A stretch of 64,000 bases of DNA from Escherichia phage Ecwhy_1. This document shows, piece by piece, positions 2,358-25,942 of the stretch; position 1 is the first letter of the stretch, and every line of letters begins with the position of its first letter. A program made the position numbers and the translations under genes. Location: the sequence record MH791411.1. One strand, written 5' to 3'. The notes beneath the pieces were generated by a model that was not told the DNA's origin, did no database searches, and saw nothing but the letters and a program-made list of their open reading frames with translations.

Positions 2358-2599
2358 ATTTTTTTATCATCCGATTTTACATAATAGTAACATACAATGC
2401 AGTGAATTACAAGAAGAATAATTTCTACTACATTCAGTGCCACAACATGCCCTTGCGGGACCGTAAGTGACAATAACAACATTATAGTAGGTATTACGAA
2501 TATTGTCAATGTTTTTTTCATTTTATTTCCTTGTGGGACCATAAGTGACAATAACAACATTATAGTAGGTATTACGAATAATGTCCATGTTTTTTTCAT
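2354..2599 (-). CDS. small hydrophobic protein containing an in-frame 26-codon tandem duplication
   Basis: MKKTWTLFVIPTIMLLLSLMVPQG followed immediately by MKKTLTIFVIPTIMLLLSLTVPQG; matches the 78-bp DNA tandem repeat. Confidence 0.35.
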   Translation of the reverse strand: MKKTWTLFVIPTIMLLLSLMVPQGNKMKKTLTIFVIPTIMLLLSLTVPQGHVVALNVVEIILLVIHCIVCYYYVKSDDKKI

Positions 2600-2608: not shown

Positions 2609-2832
2609 TTAATGTAGGCAAATGGTAAAAATACAACCTCTACCCCAGGAAATGCAGTTGCGAGTGCATCAACTATAGATTTGTTTTTATTACATTGCCA
2701 TACTTTTGTAACTTTGTGCTGGAATACCTTGCCATCTTTTACTAACCAATACATTTGCATTTTAACAGTACTGTTATCAGATGGTATTAGTAAATCTTCC
2801 ATATCATATGAATTAAAGATTCTCTCGTTCAT
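2596..2832 (-). CDS. hypothetical protein (78 aa)
   Basis: ORF track. Confidence 0.4.
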   Translation of the reverse strand: MNERIFNSYDMEDLLIPSDNSTVKMQMYWLVKDGKVFQHKVTKVWQCNKNKSIVDALATAFPGVEVVFLPFAYIKEIK

Positions 2833-3091
2833 ATAATCTCCTAGTGAAAAAAGCCAGATTCTTTCTTATATATTCGGCGACACAATCAGTAGTTTGTGTA
2901 TTTGTGAATGCAACAACTTCATTCGATACACCATTCCCATTACACAATGGACAAATCCCCATATACTTAGGTGTTGGAACTGTATCTAGTTTATATTTCC
3001 CTGAAGATATCATGTATTGTTGTGGTAATACATCCAAAGAAATAATATAATCTTCATCGAATTGCTTACAACATACCCAACATTTACTCAT
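2813..3091 (-). CDS. small zinc-finger-like protein (CWVCC ... CPLCNG)
   Basis: two Cys pairs in a 92-aa ORF. Confidence 0.4.
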   Translation of the reverse strand: MSKCWVCCKQFDEDYIISLDVLPQQYMISSGKYKLDTVPTPKYMGICPLCNGNGVSNEVVAFTNTQTTDCVAEYIRKNLAFFTRRLYERENL

Positions 3092-3575
3092 TGTGGTTCT
3101 CCTTCAAAACAATTCTTATATCTTCGAATGTTTTAACAAACCAGTCATGTTCATCAGATACATCAACCACCTTCCCACCATAAACATAGTAATGATAGAA
3201 GGGTAACTTACTTTTCCTCAATCGTTCAGCAAGTTCTGGGTTTTGAAATATCTTAGCACATATTGCATCCTGGATACAAGAAATGCATTCGGGTGTCATT
3301 TCAATACGGTCGTGCATATACTTGTTCGCCGCTGCTTTTGCAGCAGCACCCGACACTTTTCTAAGATCATCATGTTTCTGGCCTGTTAAAAACCAAAAAT
3401 AAAAAGTTTCTACCGATGGGAACCAACCGTATGGTTCTAAGGTAAAACTATGTGACGAAAAGTTAGATAGATCCCTACCTAACTTAGTTTTAGCTTTACT
3501 ATAGATATTAATGTGTCTGTATCCGTCATCAGTAGGGTCAATATAGTTAAATGACTCTTCAGGAAATTCAAACAT
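3084..3575 (-). CDS. NADAR/YbiA-like domain protein
   Basis: motifs resembling E. coli YbiA as recalled from memory: SNF...W.S.E..F...K...AAKAAANKY...NPELAERL. Confidence 0.4.
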   Translation of the reverse strand: MFEFPEESFNYIDPTDDGYRHINIYSKAKTKLGRDLSNFSSHSFTLEPYGWFPSVETFYFWFLTGQKHDDLRKVSGAAAKAAANKYMHDRIEMTPECISCIQDAICAKIFQNPELAERLRKSKLPFYHYYVYGGKVVDVSDEHDWFVKTFEDIRIVLKENHNE

Positions 3576-3577
3576 AA

Positions 3578-3931
3578 TTACTCTTCTTCACCAGATGGTG
3601 TACCACGCAGTTTATCAAAATCAACCCAAATACCATGCTGGTTTTTGAAGCGACATTTCTCATAGTACCAGCTATAGTCGGTTTCAACACCCTGAGAAAT
3701 TGAACGAACACTACAGTCATACATATTGTATAAATGTGTACGTACAATGAATGTTCCTATAAGAAGAACAAACACAACAATCCCAGTACAGATCTTTGGA
3801 TGATCCATAATTAGGTCCAACACAGAACTGGTTTCAGTACTATCAATTTTACTACGACCGATAGCAACAACTTTCAGTACTACTAATGATACCAGTAATG
3901 AAATAACAAGAACACTCAAATAAATTAGCAT
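3578..3931 (-). CDS. small membrane protein (two predicted TM helices)
   Basis: hydrophobic segments LIYLSVLVISLLVSLVVLKVV and IVVFVLLIGTFIV. Confidence 0.45.
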   Translation of the reverse strand: MLIYLSVLVISLLVSLVVLKVVAIGRSKIDSTETSSVLDLIMDHPKICTGIVVFVLLIGTFIVRTHLYNMYDCSVRSISQGVETDYSWYYEKCRFKNQHGIWVDFDKLRGTPSGEEE

Positions 3932-3933
3932 AT

Positions 3934-4518
3934 TTAGACTCCTACCCCAAAACGTAAAAGGATGTTATTAACAAACACAAAATCAAATGGAGACTTTGGT
4001 TCAGATACCGAGTACTGAAAAGTTTCAGTGGCAAAATTTTCCCTATTATGCCATGTTGATGAATCGATTAGTAATTGTTTATCACCAATTGACGTTGAAT
4101 GTAATGGGACGTGTGCTGATGAATTTATAGAATACGCATTTAGTTTTCCTTGTTCATCAAATGTAACACAAAGGTAATATCTCTTCTTAACATCAGGAGA
4201 ACGCTCTTTAATATACGAATATATTGATTCATTCAAATCATCATCATTCCTTGTCTTAGCACCGAGAACTTGAGCAAAAGACAAATTACGTTTCGGTTGG
4301 ATCGTTCCTGGTCTTTTTAGAATGAATTCTTTTGTTAAGTAAAAGTTATTGTGTTTTACCTCAATATTAACAGTTTTAAAGTTTGTGATTTTATCATATA
4401 CGTTCCTAAAAACTGTTATATCCCATGAACTAATTTCTTGCATCGTTACCGTAACTAGTTCTTCTAGTTCTTGGATAAATGGCAAATCGTCTTGATCAAA
4501 TCTAATCACAGTTTTCAT
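3934..4518 (-). CDS. hypothetical protein (194 aa)
   Basis: ORF track. Confidence 0.5.
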   Translation of the reverse strand: MKTVIRFDQDDLPFIQELEELVTVTMQEISSWDITVFRNVYDKITNFKTVNIEVKHNNFYLTKEFILKRPGTIQPKRNLSFAQVLGAKTRNDDDLNESIYSYIKERSPDVKKRYYLCVTFDEQGKLNAYSINSSAHVPLHSTSIGDKQLLIDSSTWHNRENFATETFQYSVSEPKSPFDFVFVNNILLRFGVGV

Positions 4519-5089
4519 ATACCTTTTTTAAATTCATAATTTCAAGAAGACTATATTCTTTTTCACTAATCAAATCTTCAGTGAGTGCTTCTGGTTCGGT
4601 GTTACAATACAACTTCCCATTAATGATAACATAACCATTGCTAAGATACAACGCACTCATTATCTGTTGTCCTTCTTTTGCATTGACTGCTATACCAGAA
4701 TTTGTTACAACAAGCCCATTGTTTGCAAATGCTGATGTTAGTTCCGACCATTCAACTGATATTAAATCACGATAGTCTTTTGATACTTTTATAGTAACAA
4801 TACAAGCAACTCGTGTAATAGATGGAGTACTAATCGTATACATCTGTGGGTGTTGGTAGTTTGAGTTATATGTTTGTGGTGTATTAACAGCAGTTCCTGA
4901 ATTCGGAGTTGTTGGCATAATTACTTGATCCATATTTGGAACAGCCGTTCTTAGTGATGCAATACGTCCAGTTTCATCCAATTTCAAAACTAAACGATGA
5001 GTTTTATCCTCAGAGTGATACGGGAATAGACCACCGGAATTCATATTTTGAAGCATTTTAATTAATTCATAAGTATTTTTTAAAAACAT
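4502..5089 (-). CDS. hypothetical protein (195 aa)
   Basis: ORF track. Confidence 0.5.
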   Translation of the reverse strand: MFLKNTYELIKMLQNMNSGGLFPYHSEDKTHRLVLKLDETGRIASLRTAVPNMDQVIMPTTPNSGTAVNTPQTYNSNYQHPQMYTISTPSITRVACIVTIKVSKDYRDLISVEWSELTSAFANNGLVVTNSGIAVNAKEGQQIMSALYLSNGYVIINGKLYCNTEPEALTEDLISEKEYSLLEIMNLKKVYENCD

Positions 5090-5136
5090 AATAAATCCTA
5101 TAGAAAATGGGAGTACAATGTACTCCCAGATTTAGA

Positions 5137-5691
5137 TTATAGTTTAATTACTTCTTGGATACCAGTATCCATTGCTTTCTTAGTGCGTGTATCAGAAACT
5201 ACTGTACATAAATGTTCAATATTTTCACTTGGGAATGTGTTAGTATCAAGAATTTTGGAGTTCCAGAAACCTTTACGGAACTTAGCATAATCAGTACACT
5301 GGTCAATTTTCATTTTCTGAAGATTGTTGAACTGTGTACGTCCTGACTCGATAGTTACCATAAGTTCTTGATAAATCTTAGGATCGAGATTAGGAACCTG
5401 TTGTTGAATCTGTGACATCACAAACTTCTGGTCAACACCTTCACGACCTTTAAAGTATGTTTCGATGGTTTCTTTCAATGCATCCTTATACTTATCAGAA
5501 ACTTGTACTTTTTCTTGAATGACAAGAGTGTATTTACTTAGTTGACTTTCTGATGCATCATAGTACTTTTTAATATTACCTTCAAATTCAACAGCACGGT
5601 CATGTGCATCTACATACATACTAACTGAACCAATTGCCATAAGACCGAATACAACAACAACACCAATCAATGCAATAATTTTACCATTCAT
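5137..5691 (-). CDS. LemA-like membrane protein
   Basis: N-terminal TM helix; C-terminal ESGRTQFNNLQKMKIDQCTDYAKFRKGFWNSKIL resembles the LemA-family C-terminus as recalled from memory. Confidence 0.45.
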   Translation of the reverse strand: MNGKIIALIGVVVVFGLMAIGSVSMYVDAHDRAVEFEGNIKKYYDASESQLSKYTLVIQEKVQVSDKYKDALKETIETYFKGREGVDQKFVMSQIQQQVPNLDPKIYQELMVTIESGRTQFNNLQKMKIDQCTDYAKFRKGFWNSKILDTNTFPSENIEHLCTVVSDTRTKKAMDTGIQEVIKL

Positions 5692-6782
5692 AACTTGTTA
5701 TCCCTCATATAAAGGCCAATGAAAATAGATACAATCAGTAACAAAATAGAAGCACCGATGAGAACATCTTTACGTGGTTCCATTTTTACAGACAAGTACT
5801 CGAACTCTTTATTAGAGAGTCTTTCAAACTTTGTGTCAATATTATGCACTTCTTTGCTCAACAAGTCAAGAGTTAATTTTTCATTTAATGCATCCATTCG
5901 CATCTTAGCATGTAGTTCTTCGTTCTTCATGCCTTGTGCAAAGGAAGTGCTATCAAATTTAACAATCTTCCCATCATTATCAATTCCAAAGAACATAATA
6001 ACATCATTCTTCTTACCACCACGCCACGAAGCGAGTGTTGCCTCAACAAAATCTACGTTTTTATAATCATAAACCAAAACTTGGATGTTGACTTGTTTAC
6101 GTGCACCCATAGTTTTTAGTTCTTCACGCAGATACTCATCATAACCATCTACATTATAATTAGTAGTGTTGATTACATGGTGTGTTTTATAATAGTCTAC
6201 CACACTTGGGTATTCTGGTAATGTACTAAGATATTTCTCATCATACATTTCATGTAATTCACCAGGACTAAACAATGAGTTTTTATCAGCGAACAGATAG
6301 TTAATATAAGAACTTTCTGCGGCGGCATAATCCCCAATGTTAACCTGTTGCCAGCGGGGAGGGGTCATTGTACCCTGGCGGTTTACTCGCTCAATCTCAA
6401 ACTTCCCTACAGTACTTTTTACATACCAGTCAACTTCGTATGAATAATCAAATACCTTATAGGACTCACATTCACGATGGGATTTCCCCTTACTATCATA
6501 ACGAGTTCTGCATTTCTCGTGCCACGTGTAATGCTTACATGAGCTTGATTGTGTACAAAACTCCTTGTGATTATATTTGGATGTTACCTGCCCATTTAGA
6601 ATCTCTACATCGTACAATTGGCTGTAGTTGATTGCATATGAGATACCAAGCACAAGAGCAGCACCAACTATACAACAACCAATATGAATCAACAGTTCTT
6701 TAGTACTGATATGCTTATCATACATGTATTTCATAACAAATACAACGATAAGTGAAGGAATCAACAGAATAATAAAATTCAT
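5688..6782 (-). CDS. membrane protein with N- and C-terminal TM segments, possible LemA partner
   Basis: hydrophobic N-terminus and C-terminus; 4-nt overlap with the LemA-like gene. Confidence 0.45.
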   Translation of the reverse strand: MNFIILLIPSLIVVFVMKYMYDKHISTKELLIHIGCCIVGAALVLGISYAINYSQLYDVEILNGQVTSKYNHKEFCTQSSSCKHYTWHEKCRTRYDSKGKSHRECESYKVFDYSYEVDWYVKSTVGKFEIERVNRQGTMTPPRWQQVNIGDYAAAESSYINYLFADKNSLFSPGELHEMYDEKYLSTLPEYPSVVDYYKTHHVINTTNYNVDGYDEYLREELKTMGARKQVNIQVLVYDYKNVDFVEATLASWRGGKKNDVIMFFGIDNDGKIVKFDSTSFAQGMKNEELHAKMRMDALNEKLTLDLLSKEVHNIDTKFERLSNKEFEYLSVKMEPRKDVLIGASILLLIVSIFIGLYMRDNKL

Positions 6783-6785
6783 GTA

Positions 6786-7475
6786 TTAGTCCAGTTTAAG
6801 TTTATTGAGACAATAGGAGATTTGGATAGCTTCACGTGCTGCATCATACAGAGGGTGATGTAATTCCAAACCATTAATACCACATTTTTCTGCATACTTC
6901 ACGAATTTAGCTAACTGCACTGACACAATCTCATCCATTTCGGTGCGAGCTTCTTCATTCAATAAACGCTTCAGGGTTCGTGCGTTTTCAGGAGCATCAT
7001 ATTTCCACAAATCACCAACATTCAATAGTTTTAAGTGATTAGCTTGTAAAATACTACAGTCGAAGTTGCAGCCATTTCCCCAAATTGAATGTTCAACCTC
7101 TTTACCATAACAATCAAAACGGATATCTTTCCAGAAATCGACAATACCATTAGAAGTAAAGATTTGTTTGGATTTACCATTAGGACCGTACAATTCTGGT
7201 GCAACAAGTGCCATAGTACTGGCAACTTCAGCATATGCATTAGGATATTCCTTCTGACATGTATTCATCCAGAAATCCATTGCACCTGCATCTGATTTCA
7301 GCCCAGCGTTGACTTGTGCTTGGTATGGTAACTTAACATATACAAATTGTCTGATATCATGTTCAGGTTTACTTGGAACAACTACTGCTGCATAATTTGG
7401 AATAATAATATCATAACCAGAGTTTTCAGGAGTACCGAGAGCTTCGATATCAACACTAACATGACGGCGTTTCAT
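6786..7475 (-). CDS. dexA: DnaQ-like (DEDDh) 3'-5' exonuclease, DexA-like
   Basis: VSVDIEALG (exo I), WGNGCNFDCSIL (exo II), HHPLYDAAREA (exo III, H-x4-D). Confidence 0.55.
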   Translation of the reverse strand: MKRRHVSVDIEALGTPENSGYDIIIPNYAAVVVPSKPEHDIRQFVYVKLPYQAQVNAGLKSDAGAMDFWMNTCQKEYPNAYAEVASTMALVAPELYGPNGKSKQIFTSNGIVDFWKDIRFDCYGKEVEHSIWGNGCNFDCSILQANHLKLLNVGDLWKYDAPENARTLKRLLNEEARTEMDEIVSVQLAKFVKYAEKCGINGLELHHPLYDAAREAIQISYCLNKLKLD

Positions 7476-7524
7476 ATTTCGTTCCTTATCTGTATATTAA
7501 AAAAGAGTGCGTTTCAATAAGAAC

Positions 7525-7553
7525 ATTATATTGAAAACGCCCTCTTGTGTCAA
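7525..7553 (-). promoter_or_regulatory. sigma70-type promoter, consensus TTGACA-N17-TATAAT on minus strand
   Basis: minus-strand TTGACA = rc(7548-7553), 17-nt spacer, TATAAT = rc(7525-7530); 50 nt upstream of the ATG at 7475; embedded in an imperfect palindrome. Confidence 0.45.
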
Positions 7554-7556
7554 CTA

Positions 7557-8774
7557 TTACTTGTTAGCTTTTTCAGCAATTTCACGAAGAGTATCTTCGA
7601 GTTCATGAGAGAGTTTTGCGATTTCAATCTTAGCACGCTCACGCTCTTCTTTACCTTTCTTCTCTTCAATCAGTACTGCTTCGATGCTATCGATCATTGT
7701 TTTGTGTACATTACGCAATGTTTTAATATCCACGATACCACGATTATTTGCTTTAGCAGCATCCAACATGTTAGTTGCTACCATTTTAGAGTTTACTTCG
7801 AGTAAACGGTTAGTTTCATTGTCAATCAGATTACCCAACTCATTGTCTTTACGTTGACGTTCGGAAATCAACTGTTCAGCCAATTGTGATTTCCATGCTG
7901 GAATAACAACTGATTTCAAATCCTCAAACTTAGAAACAGTGTTGAGGTTTACTTTCTTCATACTCATCAGGCGAGGACCGCTCAGTTCACACATCATGAT
8001 AAGACGACGAATCTTATCTTCCTGTTTAGAAAGAGCTTCACAAATCATCTTTTGCTCCTGGATTGCAAAAGAATCAACGTCAGGGTTCGCTTGCATTGCT
8101 ACCAATTCAGCATCTTGTGCTTTGGTAACTTCTTCCAACTCAACTAACGTATCACGCAGTTCAAAGAGATAGTTTTTGTTTTCGTTGTAAGCAGTGTCTA
8201 GCCATGCACATTCCCCATGCTGGCGGTTAATACCAACCTGAAGAGTGTTCATGATTTCATCAATTTGTTCTTTACTGTTTTTGTACTGATCGCCAACTTT
8301 CTGTTTAGCATTAACAAAAAGTTTTTTGACCCAGCCTACGATTGATTTATCATCCTGTAGACTATCAATATCAACTGCACGAGTCAATGTCAAGATAGTA
8401 GTAATAGACTTACCGAATTCGGTATTATCATCAGTGACGTTAACTTTTGACATGATTTCATCAGCCAAACGTCCTACACCTGCCCCAGCGGTGGTTCCGA
8501 TGGTATTAATATTCTGCACAGTTAACGCCATACTGTTGCCTTTAGTATCTTTCAGTACTGGAAGTGACTTGGACTGTTGTTCGAAGATATCAGTTGCGTC
8601 AATTGTGTGTGCTGCTGTTTTGGTAGTACGTTTGGCAGTTTTGGTTGCTTTGGCTTGTTTAACTGTTGCTTTTTTCGGATTGATTTCTTTCTCGGACATT
8701 GTGTATTCCTCAGTTAATTTAAGATAGTGTTGCTCAGTGATAAACATTCTACAGGCAACACTCAGTACTGTCAA
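7557..8774 (-). CDS. hypothetical coiled-coil protein, weak resemblance to TelA/toxic-anion-resistance family
   Basis: about 400 aa, Lys/Thr/Ala-rich N-terminus then long helical/coiled-coil stretches; true start probably the internal MSEKEINPKK near 8699. Confidence 0.3.
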   Translation of the reverse strand: MTVLSVACRMFITEQHYLKLTEEYTMSEKEINPKKATVKQAKATKTAKRTTKTAAHTIDATDIFEQQSKSLPVLKDTKGNSMALTVQNINTIGTTAGAGVGRLADEIMSKVNVTDDNTEFGKSITTILTLTRAVDIDSLQDDKSIVGWVKKLFVNAKQKVGDQYKNSKEQIDEIMNTLQVGINRQHGECAWLDTAYNENKNYLFELRDTLVELEEVTKAQDAELVAMQANPDVDSFAIQEQKMICEALSKQEDKIRRLIMMCELSGPRLMSMKKVNLNTVSKFEDLKSVVIPAWKSQLAEQLISERQRKDNELGNLIDNETNRLLEVNSKMVATNMLDAAKANNRGIVDIKTLRNVHKTMIDSIEAVLIEEKKGKEERERAKIEIAKLSHELEDTLREIAEKANK

Positions 8775-8782
8775 CTACTTTT

Positions 8783-9910
8783 TTACTCTTTATTTCCATA
8801 CGCTAGGTTGCGAATGATATTGGCAGTATCTTCATCGACTGCTTTACCAGTTTGAGCTTGTAAACGACCTATAATCAATGGGATAGTGATAGTTTGAATG
8901 TCAATCATTCGGCTCATATCAATCTGATACTGCTTACTAACACCAACAATACTAGTTTCAGTCATTGCTGTTGAAATACCCATTTTCATAATACGTTCAA
9001 GCGTTAGTTCATATTCAAATGGATCTTCCAAACGACGAATTGCATATTCACACCCAATCTTACCATACTCAAGTTCATTTTTGATTTCACGAACTTCCTC
9101 ACGAATTTCAGTGAATAAAGACGTAATACCACTAAACTTGTTAGTATCGTACTTCACGGCCTCATTCAATGCTTTCATTACTTTTGGTAAATCAGATGGT
9201 TGAACTTTGATATCTGCTTTCCCAAACAACTTCTGTGCAAAGGTAGGCTTCAACGGGAATAACTTTTCCAGTGCTGTTGTAAGGTTACCCATTAATAAAC
9301 GGATATAATCACTGTGTTGTTGTAGTGCTGCGTTCAAATCCAATTGTCGCTCAGAGATCTTCTGAATCTTCATACCAACTTCTTGTGCACATACTGGGAG
9401 GTTAACATACCAATCCAGTACTTTTACCGAATCTTTTTTAATTGTATCTGGGAATTCCATCCAACGTTCAATGTCAGCAACCATATCACATTCAGGATCG
9501 ATAGGTTTCTTCTTAAGAACAATAGGAGCCGGAACTTCTGGTGAAGTAGCTACTGCTGCCATGTTTGGACGAAGTTTGCCTTCCTTCCAGTCTCGGTACT
9601 CCTTCTCTAACGGAGGAATTGGGAGATCTGGAACGATTCTCACATTTGAGAAATGAATTTTATCTTTCATCAAATCCATTACCTTCAAACGGCGATTATC
9701 AAAATAGATCTCGTCGAGTGAAAGTGAACGGGTGTCGAAATGTGGATTTCCCAATGAATCGTATGTTCTGTCCACAACAATGGTATACATATATTTTCGA
9801 TTCGATGAACGATCATACTGTTTTAACAGTGAGTTAAGAACGTAGTTGAAGTTAAATTCTTTGATTTCAACTTCTTTGCCGTTGTCAATGAAAAAATATT
9901 TTCCTTTCAT
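8783..9910 (-). CDS. hypothetical protein (375 aa)
   Basis: ORF track. Confidence 0.5.
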   Translation of the reverse strand: MKGKYFFIDNGKEVEIKEFNFNYVLNSLLKQYDRSSNRKYMYTIVVDRTYDSLGNPHFDTRSLSLDEIYFDNRRLKVMDLMKDKIHFSNVRIVPDLPIPPLEKEYRDWKEGKLRPNMAAVATSPEVPAPIVLKKKPIDPECDMVADIERWMEFPDTIKKDSVKVLDWYVNLPVCAQEVGMKIQKISERQLDLNAALQQHSDYIRLLMGNLTTALEKLFPLKPTFAQKLFGKADIKVQPSDLPKVMKALNEAVKYDTNKFSGITSLFTEIREEVREIKNELEYGKIGCEYAIRRLEDPFEYELTLERIMKMGISTAMTETSIVGVSKQYQIDMSRMIDIQTITIPLIIGRLQAQTGKAVDEDTANIIRNLAYGNKE

Positions 9911-9990
9911 TACTAACCTCTTAATTAATTAAAATTGATACGATACGTACATTCTACATACACACGATGTATTTGTCAAACCATTTTTTA

Positions 9991-10021
9991 AAGAAAAAAA
10001 GGACGCACCTTAGTGCATCCT
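9991..10021 (-). terminator. intrinsic terminator (hairpin + T7 run on minus strand)
   Basis: AGGACGCAC / GTGCATCCT stem at 10000-10021; minus-strand RNA continues UUUUUUUCUU; overlaps the stop of 10010..10828. Confidence 0.55.
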
Positions 10022-10828
10022 TTTGTTACTCTTGTCCTTGTACCACACAAATGTTTTTACTGGTGGGTACTTTTCATTCTTTGGTGGTTCCGGCATATCA
10101 TACACAGTTGCATTTCTGAATTTTAAAATGTATGAATCCATTAAACGAATTATACAATAGTTCATGCACTTTTGTGCACGTTCTTTCCAAAAATGTTTAT
10201 ATGGTTCTGGACACCCAAGATAATCCAATTTGTACATACCCATAGCAGCTTGCATAAAGCGTTGGGCAGAGAACTTACGCTTGTCTACCTTACTAGCTCG
10301 ATGCTGGTCACATGTCCAACTAGAGATACCAGGGAGATGACAGAATAAATCAAAACTCACCATACTATCAAAGTACTTGTTATGACCGTTCAACTCTCCA
10401 TAAAATACCGCTTCGGAAACAGTTTCATATAGTGAGTAATTTGTATGTATATGTTCATTGTCAAATATAGCTTTTAGATCTTTGTAAGTTTCTGGTACTG
10501 GTGGCTCTGGTAACACTTCACCGAACGTCTCTAAGCACCAAATCTTCCACAAGCCTTTCGTAAATTTTACTTCAAGTTCTTTATCGCTGTCAATATAAAA
10601 AGTTTTCTCATTGATAAAAACTTTTCGTGCCATGTATGCTTTGAATACCGCATCAGGGTCGATATCTTCACGTTTGATATCGTCCCATCCTTTACCGATT
10701 CGAGAAATTTCGAATCGTCTCATATACATTCTACATGCCAAATCTTTAGTTGTACTACGATGATACTTGTCGTCTTGGTGAAGTTTGGTAGTCTCATGGA
10801 GAGATTTAAGCATGTTTAAAATTCTCAT
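10010..10828 (-). CDS. hypothetical protein (272 aa)
   Basis: ORF track. Confidence 0.5.
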   Translation of the reverse strand: MRILNMLKSLHETTKLHQDDKYHRSTTKDLACRMYMRRFEISRIGKGWDDIKREDIDPDAVFKAYMARKVFINEKTFYIDSDKELEVKFTKGLWKIWCLETFGEVLPEPPVPETYKDLKAIFDNEHIHTNYSLYETVSEAVFYGELNGHNKYFDSMVSFDLFCHLPGISSWTCDQHRASKVDKRKFSAQRFMQAAMGMYKLDYLGCPEPYKHFWKERAQKCMNYCIIRLMDSYILKFRNATVYDMPEPPKNEKYPPVKTFVWYKDKSNKRMH

Positions 10829-25678: not shown

Positions 25679-25747
25679 GTAATAAAAGCTCCGATATGGT
25701 TTTAATGTTTAATTCGATAGTAATTATAGCTAAGAACTAATGTTCTG

Positions 25748-25942
25748 TCAAGCACTATCATTATGTTTTTTAATTGCTTCACAGATTGCTTGAACTTGCA
25801 CTAGATAAGTTTTAGCAAACTCTGCTTGAGTACGCACGCGTGGATTTGGTGCATCTTTGATCATAAGTTCTAAGTCATAAACTACTTTATCGAAAACACC
25901 CTTGTCTTCAATAATACGATCATAAAAGGTTTTGTCAGTCAT
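25748..25942 (-). CDS. hypothetical protein (64 aa)
   Basis: ORF track. Confidence 0.35.
   Translation of the reverse strand: MTDKTFYDRIIEDKGVFDKVVYDLELMIKDAPNPRVRTQAEFAKTYLVQVQAICEAIKKHNDSA

Follow-up and report, generated by a model that had tools for sequence, protein, structure and literature searches.

Few bacterial membrane proteins without an established function are as widespread as LemA and TPM proteins, and the pairing of their genes is unexplained. Only one LemA relative has been tied to a process: MamQ of magnetotactic bacteria is proposed to be a hub that organises membrane proteins before the magnetosome membrane invaginates (PMC4902198). A LemA-like domain in mycobacteria is predicted to scaffold membrane enzymes (10.64898/2026.07.15.738315). 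It has been argued that TPM domains are not phosphatases but chaperone-like factors for the assembly of membrane complexes, and that they pair repeatedly with membrane-associated helical proteins (10.1101/2020.09.24.301986; 10.1101/2025.01.14.632903). Here we describe two overlapping genes of Escherichia phage Ecwhy_1 that encode a LemA-like membrane protein of 184 amino acids (aa) and a membrane partner of 364 aa. They lie in a 64,000-nucleotide stretch of sequence record MH791411.1 (the window), to which all positions refer.

In Thermotoga, Neobacillus, Carboxydocella and Brevibacillus the gene directly 3' of lemA encodes a TPM_phosphatase protein of 238-262 aa, and in three of these four pairs the stop and start codons overlap. 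The gene after lemA in Thermincola encodes a protein alignable with those TPM proteins, and no TPM gene follows lemA in Fervidobacterium. Counted together, lemA is followed by TPM in four to five of the six bacterial loci checked, and the Thermotoga locus is that of the LemA protein of PDB 2ETD itself (TM0961). The initial annotation of the window had held that the phage genes mirror bacterial lemA and its membrane partner. These bacterial loci bear that out, as does the phage neighbour, whose model has a TPM fold: the pair is a phage version of the bacterial lemA-TPM two-gene module.

No study of phage LemA/TPM pairs was found in the literature, nor was a paper on the TPM fold of the partner, on the equivalence with bacterial lemA-TPM or on the conservation of the pair across phage families. 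The LemA label itself is not new, and the GenBank records of fEgEco12, Turkey3 and ph0011 already apply it to the orthologs.

The LemA-like protein and its partner

The window comes from a PBECO4/121Q-like (Asteriusvirus-like) jumbo coliphage. Over positions 3000-10000 it shares 99.6% identity with Escherichia phage fEgEco12 and about 82% with PBECO4 and with phAPEC6. The two genes and the parts of their products are listed below; AF2 denotes AlphaFold2 and TM transmembrane.

5137..5691, minus strand: LemA-like gene, ATG start, 184 aa, phrog_1383 (E 2e-65).
5605..5691, minus strand: LemA-like residues 1-29, N-terminal TM anchor, a hydrophobic helix predicted to be N-in.
5221..5616, minus strand: LemA-like residues ~26-157, helical domain homologous to the LemA four-helix bundle, with Cys132/Cys162 (hhalign, 2ETD match).
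5688..6782, minus strand: partner gene, ATG start, 364 aa, phrog_2087 (E 5e-135).
6621..6782, minus strand: partner residues 1-54, two N-terminal TM helices (1-22 and 27-54) predicted as a hairpin (hydrophobicity, AF2).
6303..6620, minus strand: partner residues 55-160, predicted beta-rich domain (strands within 57-160) with Cys76, Cys82, Cys91 and Cys105 (AF2, conserved Cys).
5823..6185, minus strand: partner residues ~200-320, TPM-like alpha/beta domain of the order b-a-b-a-b-b-a-a (AF2 model).
5700..5777, minus strand: partner residues 336-361, C-terminal TM helix followed by a short net-positive tail (hydrophobicity, AF2).

Both open reading frames (ORFs) are present as first annotated, with coordinates, overlap and upstream order all correct. 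Because both match PHROG families, each with homologs in about 480 phage records, they are read as genuine genes and not chance ORFs. The larger partner gene lies upstream on the minus strand, and the two genes overlap by 4 nt (ATGA) at 5688-5691, an arrangement by which the LemA-like gene is predicted to be translationally coupled to its partner.

The identification of the small protein as a LemA relative is upheld at the level of family profiles. An exhaustive profile search gathered 741 cluster representatives of its family, all of about 180-200 aa. Three alignments were compared: 112 diverse members of the phage family (A3), close relatives only (A1), and 31 genuine LemA proteins, all of them PF04011 (A4). 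The hhalign comparison of A3 with A4 gives a probability of 97.8% and E 8.1e-13 over 155 columns, TM anchor included; A1 with A4 gives 88.3% and E 2.9e-06. Searched against PDB sequences, the A3 profile finds 2ETD, "lemA protein", at E 6.2e-07 over profile positions 29-159, with the next match at 0.049. The A1 profile did not recover LemA from the same sequences, and the broader profile was required. PF04011 is by far the most frequent Pfam match among the A3 members (23 of 112, weak or sub-threshold, best E 2.9e-06). Among relatives that adjoin partner genes in genome contigs, one (L041) passes the Pfam gathering threshold of this family (27.7 vs 26.2 bits) and the others score 14-20 bits; the window protein is below the threshold. 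By these profile comparisons, the family of the 184-aa protein is a remote but significant LemA homolog, and the match covers the helical domain in full as well as the TM anchor.

The architecture agrees with that of LemA. The protein has 184 aa (186-195 aa in genuine LemA), the single hydrophobic N-terminal helix of the initial annotation at residues 1-29, and a long first helix in the AF2 model, whose helices span residues 3-62, 66-81, 88-98 and 104-139. Its C-terminal region had likewise been described as LemA-like, and in the profile-profile alignment the stretch ESGRTQFNNLQKMKIDQCTDYAKFRKGFWNSKIL is indeed matched to the region of genuine LemA that holds its conserved C-terminal motif. 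Y135 is paired there with LemA Y155, and F142-W143 with LemA F162-P163. The LemA motif ENYPNL is kept in part, as P100-N-L102 in the window protein (vs YPNL) and as E-x-N-P in the wider family. Since the PF04011 scores of the family's own members are mostly sub-threshold and the LemA motifs are only partly kept, the sequences place the phage family at the margin of PF04011, as a divergent sister group and not as a canonical member. An NCBIfam scan of the 184-aa protein was empty, and neither NCBIfam for the partner nor PADLOC for both window proteins gave a meaningful match.

The AF2 model of the partner, made with a diverse 57-sequence alignment, is confident, with a predicted local distance difference test score of 90.2. 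It depicts a three-TM membrane protein in which an extra Cys-rich beta domain precedes a TPM-fold domain and a TM helix. The TM segments first annotated at both ends are confirmed by this model and refined to two at the N-terminus and one at the C-terminus. Each of Cys76, Cys82, Cys91 and Cys105 is found in 72-96% of homologs, and the alpha/beta domain carries the conserved motif W253-x-x-G256-K-K-N259-D260-V. The comparison with TPM families proposed in the initial annotation has a divided outcome: the fold is seen in the AF2 model, and no sequence-profile match reaches significance. PF04536 (TPM_phosphatase) is the top Pfam family among the partner homologs (7 of 57, weak, best E 0.0016), the partner itself has no PF04536 match in a Pfam scan, and the partner family profile found nothing among PDB sequences. 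If the model is right, the partner gene, whose family phrog_2087 is labelled "unknown function", gains a structural assignment.

Topology was predicted from simple rules (charge bias and conserved Cys). In the LemA-like family the N-terminal flank is net positive and the flank after the TM helix is net negative, the same pattern as in bacterial LemA. Among the 112 members Cys132 and Cys162 are both present in 42 and both absent from 70, and none has only one of them; such co-occurrence is a sequence signature of a disulfide. The TM1-TM2 loop and the C-terminal tail of the partner are net positive, and the loop is predicted to be cytoplasmic. Because of the charge bias, the perfectly co-occurring Cys pair and the conserved Cys of the partner, the large domains of both proteins are predicted to face the periplasm. 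The suggestion of the initial annotation that the pair may act on the host envelope would fit this predicted topology.

Distribution of the pair

The LemA-like protein is detected by tblastn in 482, and the partner in 487, of 50,697 phage records. Records with the LemA-like protein and with the partner number 166/166 for phages of Salmonella, 62/62 for Escherichia, 54/55 for Klebsiella, 29/29 for Erwinia, 25/26 for Aeromonas, 23/23 for Acinetobacter, 22/22 for Serratia, 22/22 for Vibrio and 19/19 for Dickeya. Carriers include Ackermannviridae (CBA120 orf253/orf254), Rak2-like jumbo phages, ICP1, Aeh1/PX29, Agricanvirus, Saclayvirus, phiW-14 and Lak phages. Wherever both genes are listed in phage records their coordinates are adjacent, and more than ten host genera are represented. 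The initial annotation had regarded a phage copy of such a pair as uncommon, a view that these counts overturn.

The genes on either side vary by lineage: an amino-acid:DNA transferase in CBA120, a resolvase in ICP1 and a PinA-like protein in Aci02-2. When all flanking ORFs of the window were compared by BLAST with those of CBA120, ICP1 and Aci02-2, the pair proved to be the only genes in common. The pair is a conserved unit across very different large phages and is not rare. Because about 480 large virulent phages keep it while its surroundings change, the two proteins probably work together and are useful in the infection of Gram-negative cells.

Among 185,579 species genomes only 26 loci hold the partner family, and a LemA-like gene is adjacent in 18 of the 23 with enough flanking sequence. 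Half of the 26 matches (L017-L042) are in candidate phyla radiation (CPR)/Patescibacteria bins. In one of the 26 loci (L018, Kaiserbacteria, 2723-10425) a phage-type pair has genes of cellular appearance on either side (HepT-like RNase, RmuC); 2 kb downstream of it lies a canonical LemA (212 bits), followed by an M48 peptidase. The pair is also present in two isolate genomes, those of Achromobacter anxifer (L019) and Variovorax WDL1 (L024). Some CPR bacteria may have the pair as a native feature, beyond its phage-borne copies. Loci with the partner alone are mostly in high-GC Myxococcota, Planctomycetota or "Deltaproteobacteria" bins and may represent a solo cellular branch of the partner family.

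Comparison with known modules and a proposed role

In both the phage pair and the bacterial lemA-TPM operons, a protein of about 190 aa combines a helical LemA-type domain with a TM anchor at its N-terminus, the gene beside it is translationally coupled and encodes a membrane protein in which a TPM-fold domain is followed by a TM helix, and both large domains are predicted to be extracytoplasmic. The phage partner differs in its additional parts, a TM hairpin at the N-terminus and a Cys-rich beta domain, and both window proteins score below Pfam thresholds. MamQ, which is likened here by its published description, belongs to the same superfamily and has a single TM anchor and a LemA-type bundle; it works, however, with Mam proteins and no TPM partner, in a specialised organelle pathway. 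The TPM assembly or maintenance factors (AtTLP18.3, Psb32, LMTP1, mycobacterial AscF/DUF5130 and Bizionia BA41) are single-domain proteins that serve photosystem II or respiratory supercomplexes, whereas the phage partner has additional domains. [quoted passage not shown] PspA is of the ESCRT-III type and lies on the cytoplasmic face, whereas the phage pair is LemA-type and predicted to be periplasmic.

We consider it reasonably probable that the phage lemA-TPM-type pair acts as an early scaffold or chaperone complex that sits in the inner membrane and faces the periplasm. The operon would be transcribed early by host RNA polymerase, both proteins would be inserted in the inner membrane of the host, the large domains lying in the periplasm, and the LemA-like and TPM-like proteins would form a complex. 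By analogy with MamQ and the TPM proteins this complex could be a scaffold or a chaperone, the scaffold being suggested because MamQ has been proposed as a membrane-protein hub. Over the long infection cycle of large virulent phages it might organise inner-membrane components or stabilise them, and it would be neither an enzyme nor a part of the virion. This is not a surprising new mechanism; homology and pairing are computed, and complex formation, topology, timing and role, and with them function, are what we infer.

Several observations weigh against this proposal or against the likeness on which it draws. The gene order is reversed, with lemA first in bacteria and the TPM-like gene first in phages. 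The 184-aa protein alone has no PF04011 match even at E<=1; this check had been set beforehand as the refuting test of the initial annotation, and as a single-sequence test it is too insensitive. QLQRRxDLIPNLV, the most conserved LemA motif, is not kept in the phage family. The RIEVGYGLEG motif of the bacterial TPM proteins (TPM motif EVGYGLEG) and their Gly-rich C-terminal tail are both absent from the phage partner, and among the signatures of the LemA-linked TPM proteins only FRxxGIGxKxxNNGVL has a counterpart there (W253-x-x-G-G-K-K-N-D-V-I). Compared by hhalign with five LemA-linked TPM proteins from bacteria, the partner family falls short of significance (E 0.1), and the sole aligned stretch is this TPM core motif (W-x-x-GG-KKNDVI vs wGiG-k-NNGVLLL). 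With sequence support as faint as this and as the few weak PF04536 matches, the TPM assignment is a structural one that depends on the predicted model. Five cellular loci (L023, L028, L031, L032 and L038) have the partner and no detectable LemA-like neighbour even at E<=10. Finally, the mechanistic step is one of analogy only.

Some of these results could be taken to mean that the resemblances to LemA and TPM arose by chance or convergence, and that the pair is an unrelated phage-specific module. Neither window protein has a single-sequence Pfam match, fold searches with the helical 184-aa protein return nonspecific matches, and the comparison of the partner with TPM proteins falls short of significance. 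Set beside the family-profile match to LemA, this explanation is largely refuted and is the least credible of those considered.

The TPM-like domain could also be an active periplasmic phosphatase that acts on an envelope substrate (a lipid carrier, lipopolysaccharide or a periplasmic nucleotide), the LemA-like protein serving as membrane adaptor. The TPM family takes its name from the phosphatase activity reported for TLP18.3 and its relatives, and TLP18.3-type proteins are the closest structural matches of the partner. The activity of TPM domains is, however, disputed (10.1101/2020.09.24.301986; 10.1101/2025.01.14.632903), the mycobacterial TPM subunit AscF is described as being without metal and nucleotide binding, and the phage partner does not have the canonical EVGYGLEG signature. 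A phosphatase is accordingly a poor prospect, and a non-enzymatic scaffold or chaperone is preferred.

Database labels point instead to the virion. phrog_1383 is named "virion structural protein" in PHROGs, and the RefSeq product names of the orthologs in PBECO4, CBA120, RAY and Serratia BF agree with that category. If the label were right, the two genes would encode virion structural proteins. The orthologs gp143c (LemA-like) and gp144c (partner) are, however, absent from the 62-protein virion proteome determined by mass spectrometry for phAPEC6, one 82%-identical relative. The genes have early and nucleotide-metabolism genes around them and lie outside morphogenesis modules, and a TM anchor, a predicted periplasmic disulfide and homology to LemA and TPM would be unexpected in virion parts of a tailed phage. 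No experimental origin of the label could be traced in the proteomics papers on Erwinia, Ackermannviridae and Vi01-like phages. A place in the virion is very improbable, and the label on the LemA-like gene is unsupported.

A bolder form of the scaffold or chaperone proposal would make the pair a phage-encoded membrane-organising machine, produced early, that builds or stabilises a specialised inner-membrane platform from the periplasmic side. We regard this extension, drawn by analogy, as unlikely. If it is true, the platform could serve to sustain energisation, to anchor replication or the assembly of proheads, or to reshape the membrane, as MamQ seeds magnetosome membrane formation, and the pair in tractable phages (CBA120, ICP1, Asteriusvirus) would be the first experimental handle on the widespread LemA-TPM module. 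In CBA120 and ICP1 a deletion phenotype could reveal the role of LemA-TPM.

The operon and its neighbours

The following elements and genes adjoin the pair.

7525..7553, minus strand: perfect sigma-70 promoter TTGACA-17-TATAAT (12/12), in the 81-nt gap 5' of the exonuclease gene.
6786..7475, minus strand: Rv2179c-like 3'-5' exonuclease gene, first of the operon (PF16473, 4.5e-09; phrog_255).
5108..5128, minus strand: intrinsic terminator with a 9-bp GC-rich stem and a U-run, 9 nt past the stop codon of the LemA-like gene.
7557-8774, minus strand: TelA-family gene (toxic anion resistance; PF05816, 1.8e-37).

The junctions are tight, 3 nt between exonuclease and partner and -4 nt between partner and LemA-like gene. 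In phAPEC6 and PBECO4 both promoter hexamers are unchanged, whereas the spacer between them diverges; the terminator stem is kept as well. Folding compared with shuffles gives z = -4.5 for the promoter-region hairpin and z = -3.2 for the hairpin of the LemA-like terminator. Perfect TTGACA-N17-TATAAT sites number three in the 64-kb window (2481-2509, 7525-7553 and 25723-25751, all minus) vs 0.13 expected from shuffles. Because the consensus promoter and the terminator are conserved and the hairpins exceed the shuffles, promoter and terminator appear to bracket the exonuclease, partner and LemA-like genes as an early operon read by host RNA polymerase.

Early expression would also suit superinfection exclusion or entry control, in which a periplasm-facing complex blocks DNA injection or wall penetration by later phages in the manner of the unrelated T4 Imm and Sp. 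The consensus sigma-70 promoter, by which the genes are probably early, the predicted periplasm-facing topology and the confinement of the pair to virulent large phages of Gram-negative hosts are all consistent with such a function. It is made rather unlikely by the absence of any similarity to known exclusion proteins and of any PADLOC or PHROG functional match, and by the cellular homologs (lemA-TPM modules; CPR-type contexts), which would hardly serve phage exclusion. The divergence of the genes across many phage families is also steady, more like that of a housekeeping gene than of one in an arms race.

The same promoter bears on lysis. A type-II membrane protein and a multi-TM partner could control or execute envelope breakdown as antiholin-, holin- or i-spanin-like proteins do. 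The N-terminal TM helix and periplasmic helical domain are superficially like those of i-spanins and T4 RI, and one partner homolog has a very weak Phage_holin_3_2 match (E 0.046). The promoter is, however, of the early type, the homology is to LemA and TPM and not to lysis proteins, no outer-membrane lipoprotein partner is present, and endolysin, holin and spanin genes are not adjacent to the pair in any lineage examined. Involvement in lysis thus has little to recommend it, and an early scaffold or chaperone complex remains the preferred reading.

The exonuclease was considered as a member of the conserved module and rejected. It adjoins the pair only in the Rak2-like lineage of the window, Serratia phage BF included, as an operon neighbour, and no exonuclease gene lies beside the pair in CBA120, ICP1 or Aci02-2. 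Several GenBank records label the gene at 6786-7475 "peptidase" or "putative metallopeptidase". Because it matches the PF16473 exoribonuclease domain and the phrog_255 exonuclease family, this label is probably an annotation error. Together with "virion structural protein" for the LemA-like gene, two database labels are thereby corrected, the peptidase one as probably wrong.

The perfect promoter upstream of the exonuclease gene lies within a strong hairpin (GAGGGCGUUUUCAAUA...UAUUGAAACGCACUC) followed by UUUUUU, within 7476-7556 on the minus strand, with the -10 box in the stem and loop. This hairpin-promoter element is conserved in phAPEC6 and PBECO4. The hairpin and U-run probably terminate the upstream TelA transcript, and the element appears to combine a terminator with a promoter. 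Near-perfect (11/12) promoters are found at 8774-8746, before the TelA gene, and at 9979-9951, before ORF 8783-9910. This part of the window seems to consist of successive early transcription units that host RNA polymerase reads.

TelA was likewise rejected as a member of the module, having its own promoter and not lying beside the pair in CBA120, ICP1 or Aci02-2. Mechanical ORF calling starts it at TTG 8774. Since fEgEco12 annotates a start that corresponds to window position 8699, and the 11/12 promoter at 8774-8746 precedes that ATG, the shorter 380-aa product is more likely.

GC skew is negative across the whole window, every ORF examined in 3000-10000 is on the minus strand, and neither tRNA nor tmRNA genes were detected by ARAGORN in 1-64000. 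ORF 3084-3575 (minus, 163 aa; phrog_652/phrog_11222), which the Turkey3 record apparently labels "NADAR domain-containing protein", has no Pfam match at E<=1. ORF 3578-3931 (minus, 117 aa; phrog_8041) has two hydrophobic helices (residues 1-29 and 40-69) and encodes a membrane protein three genes downstream of the pair.

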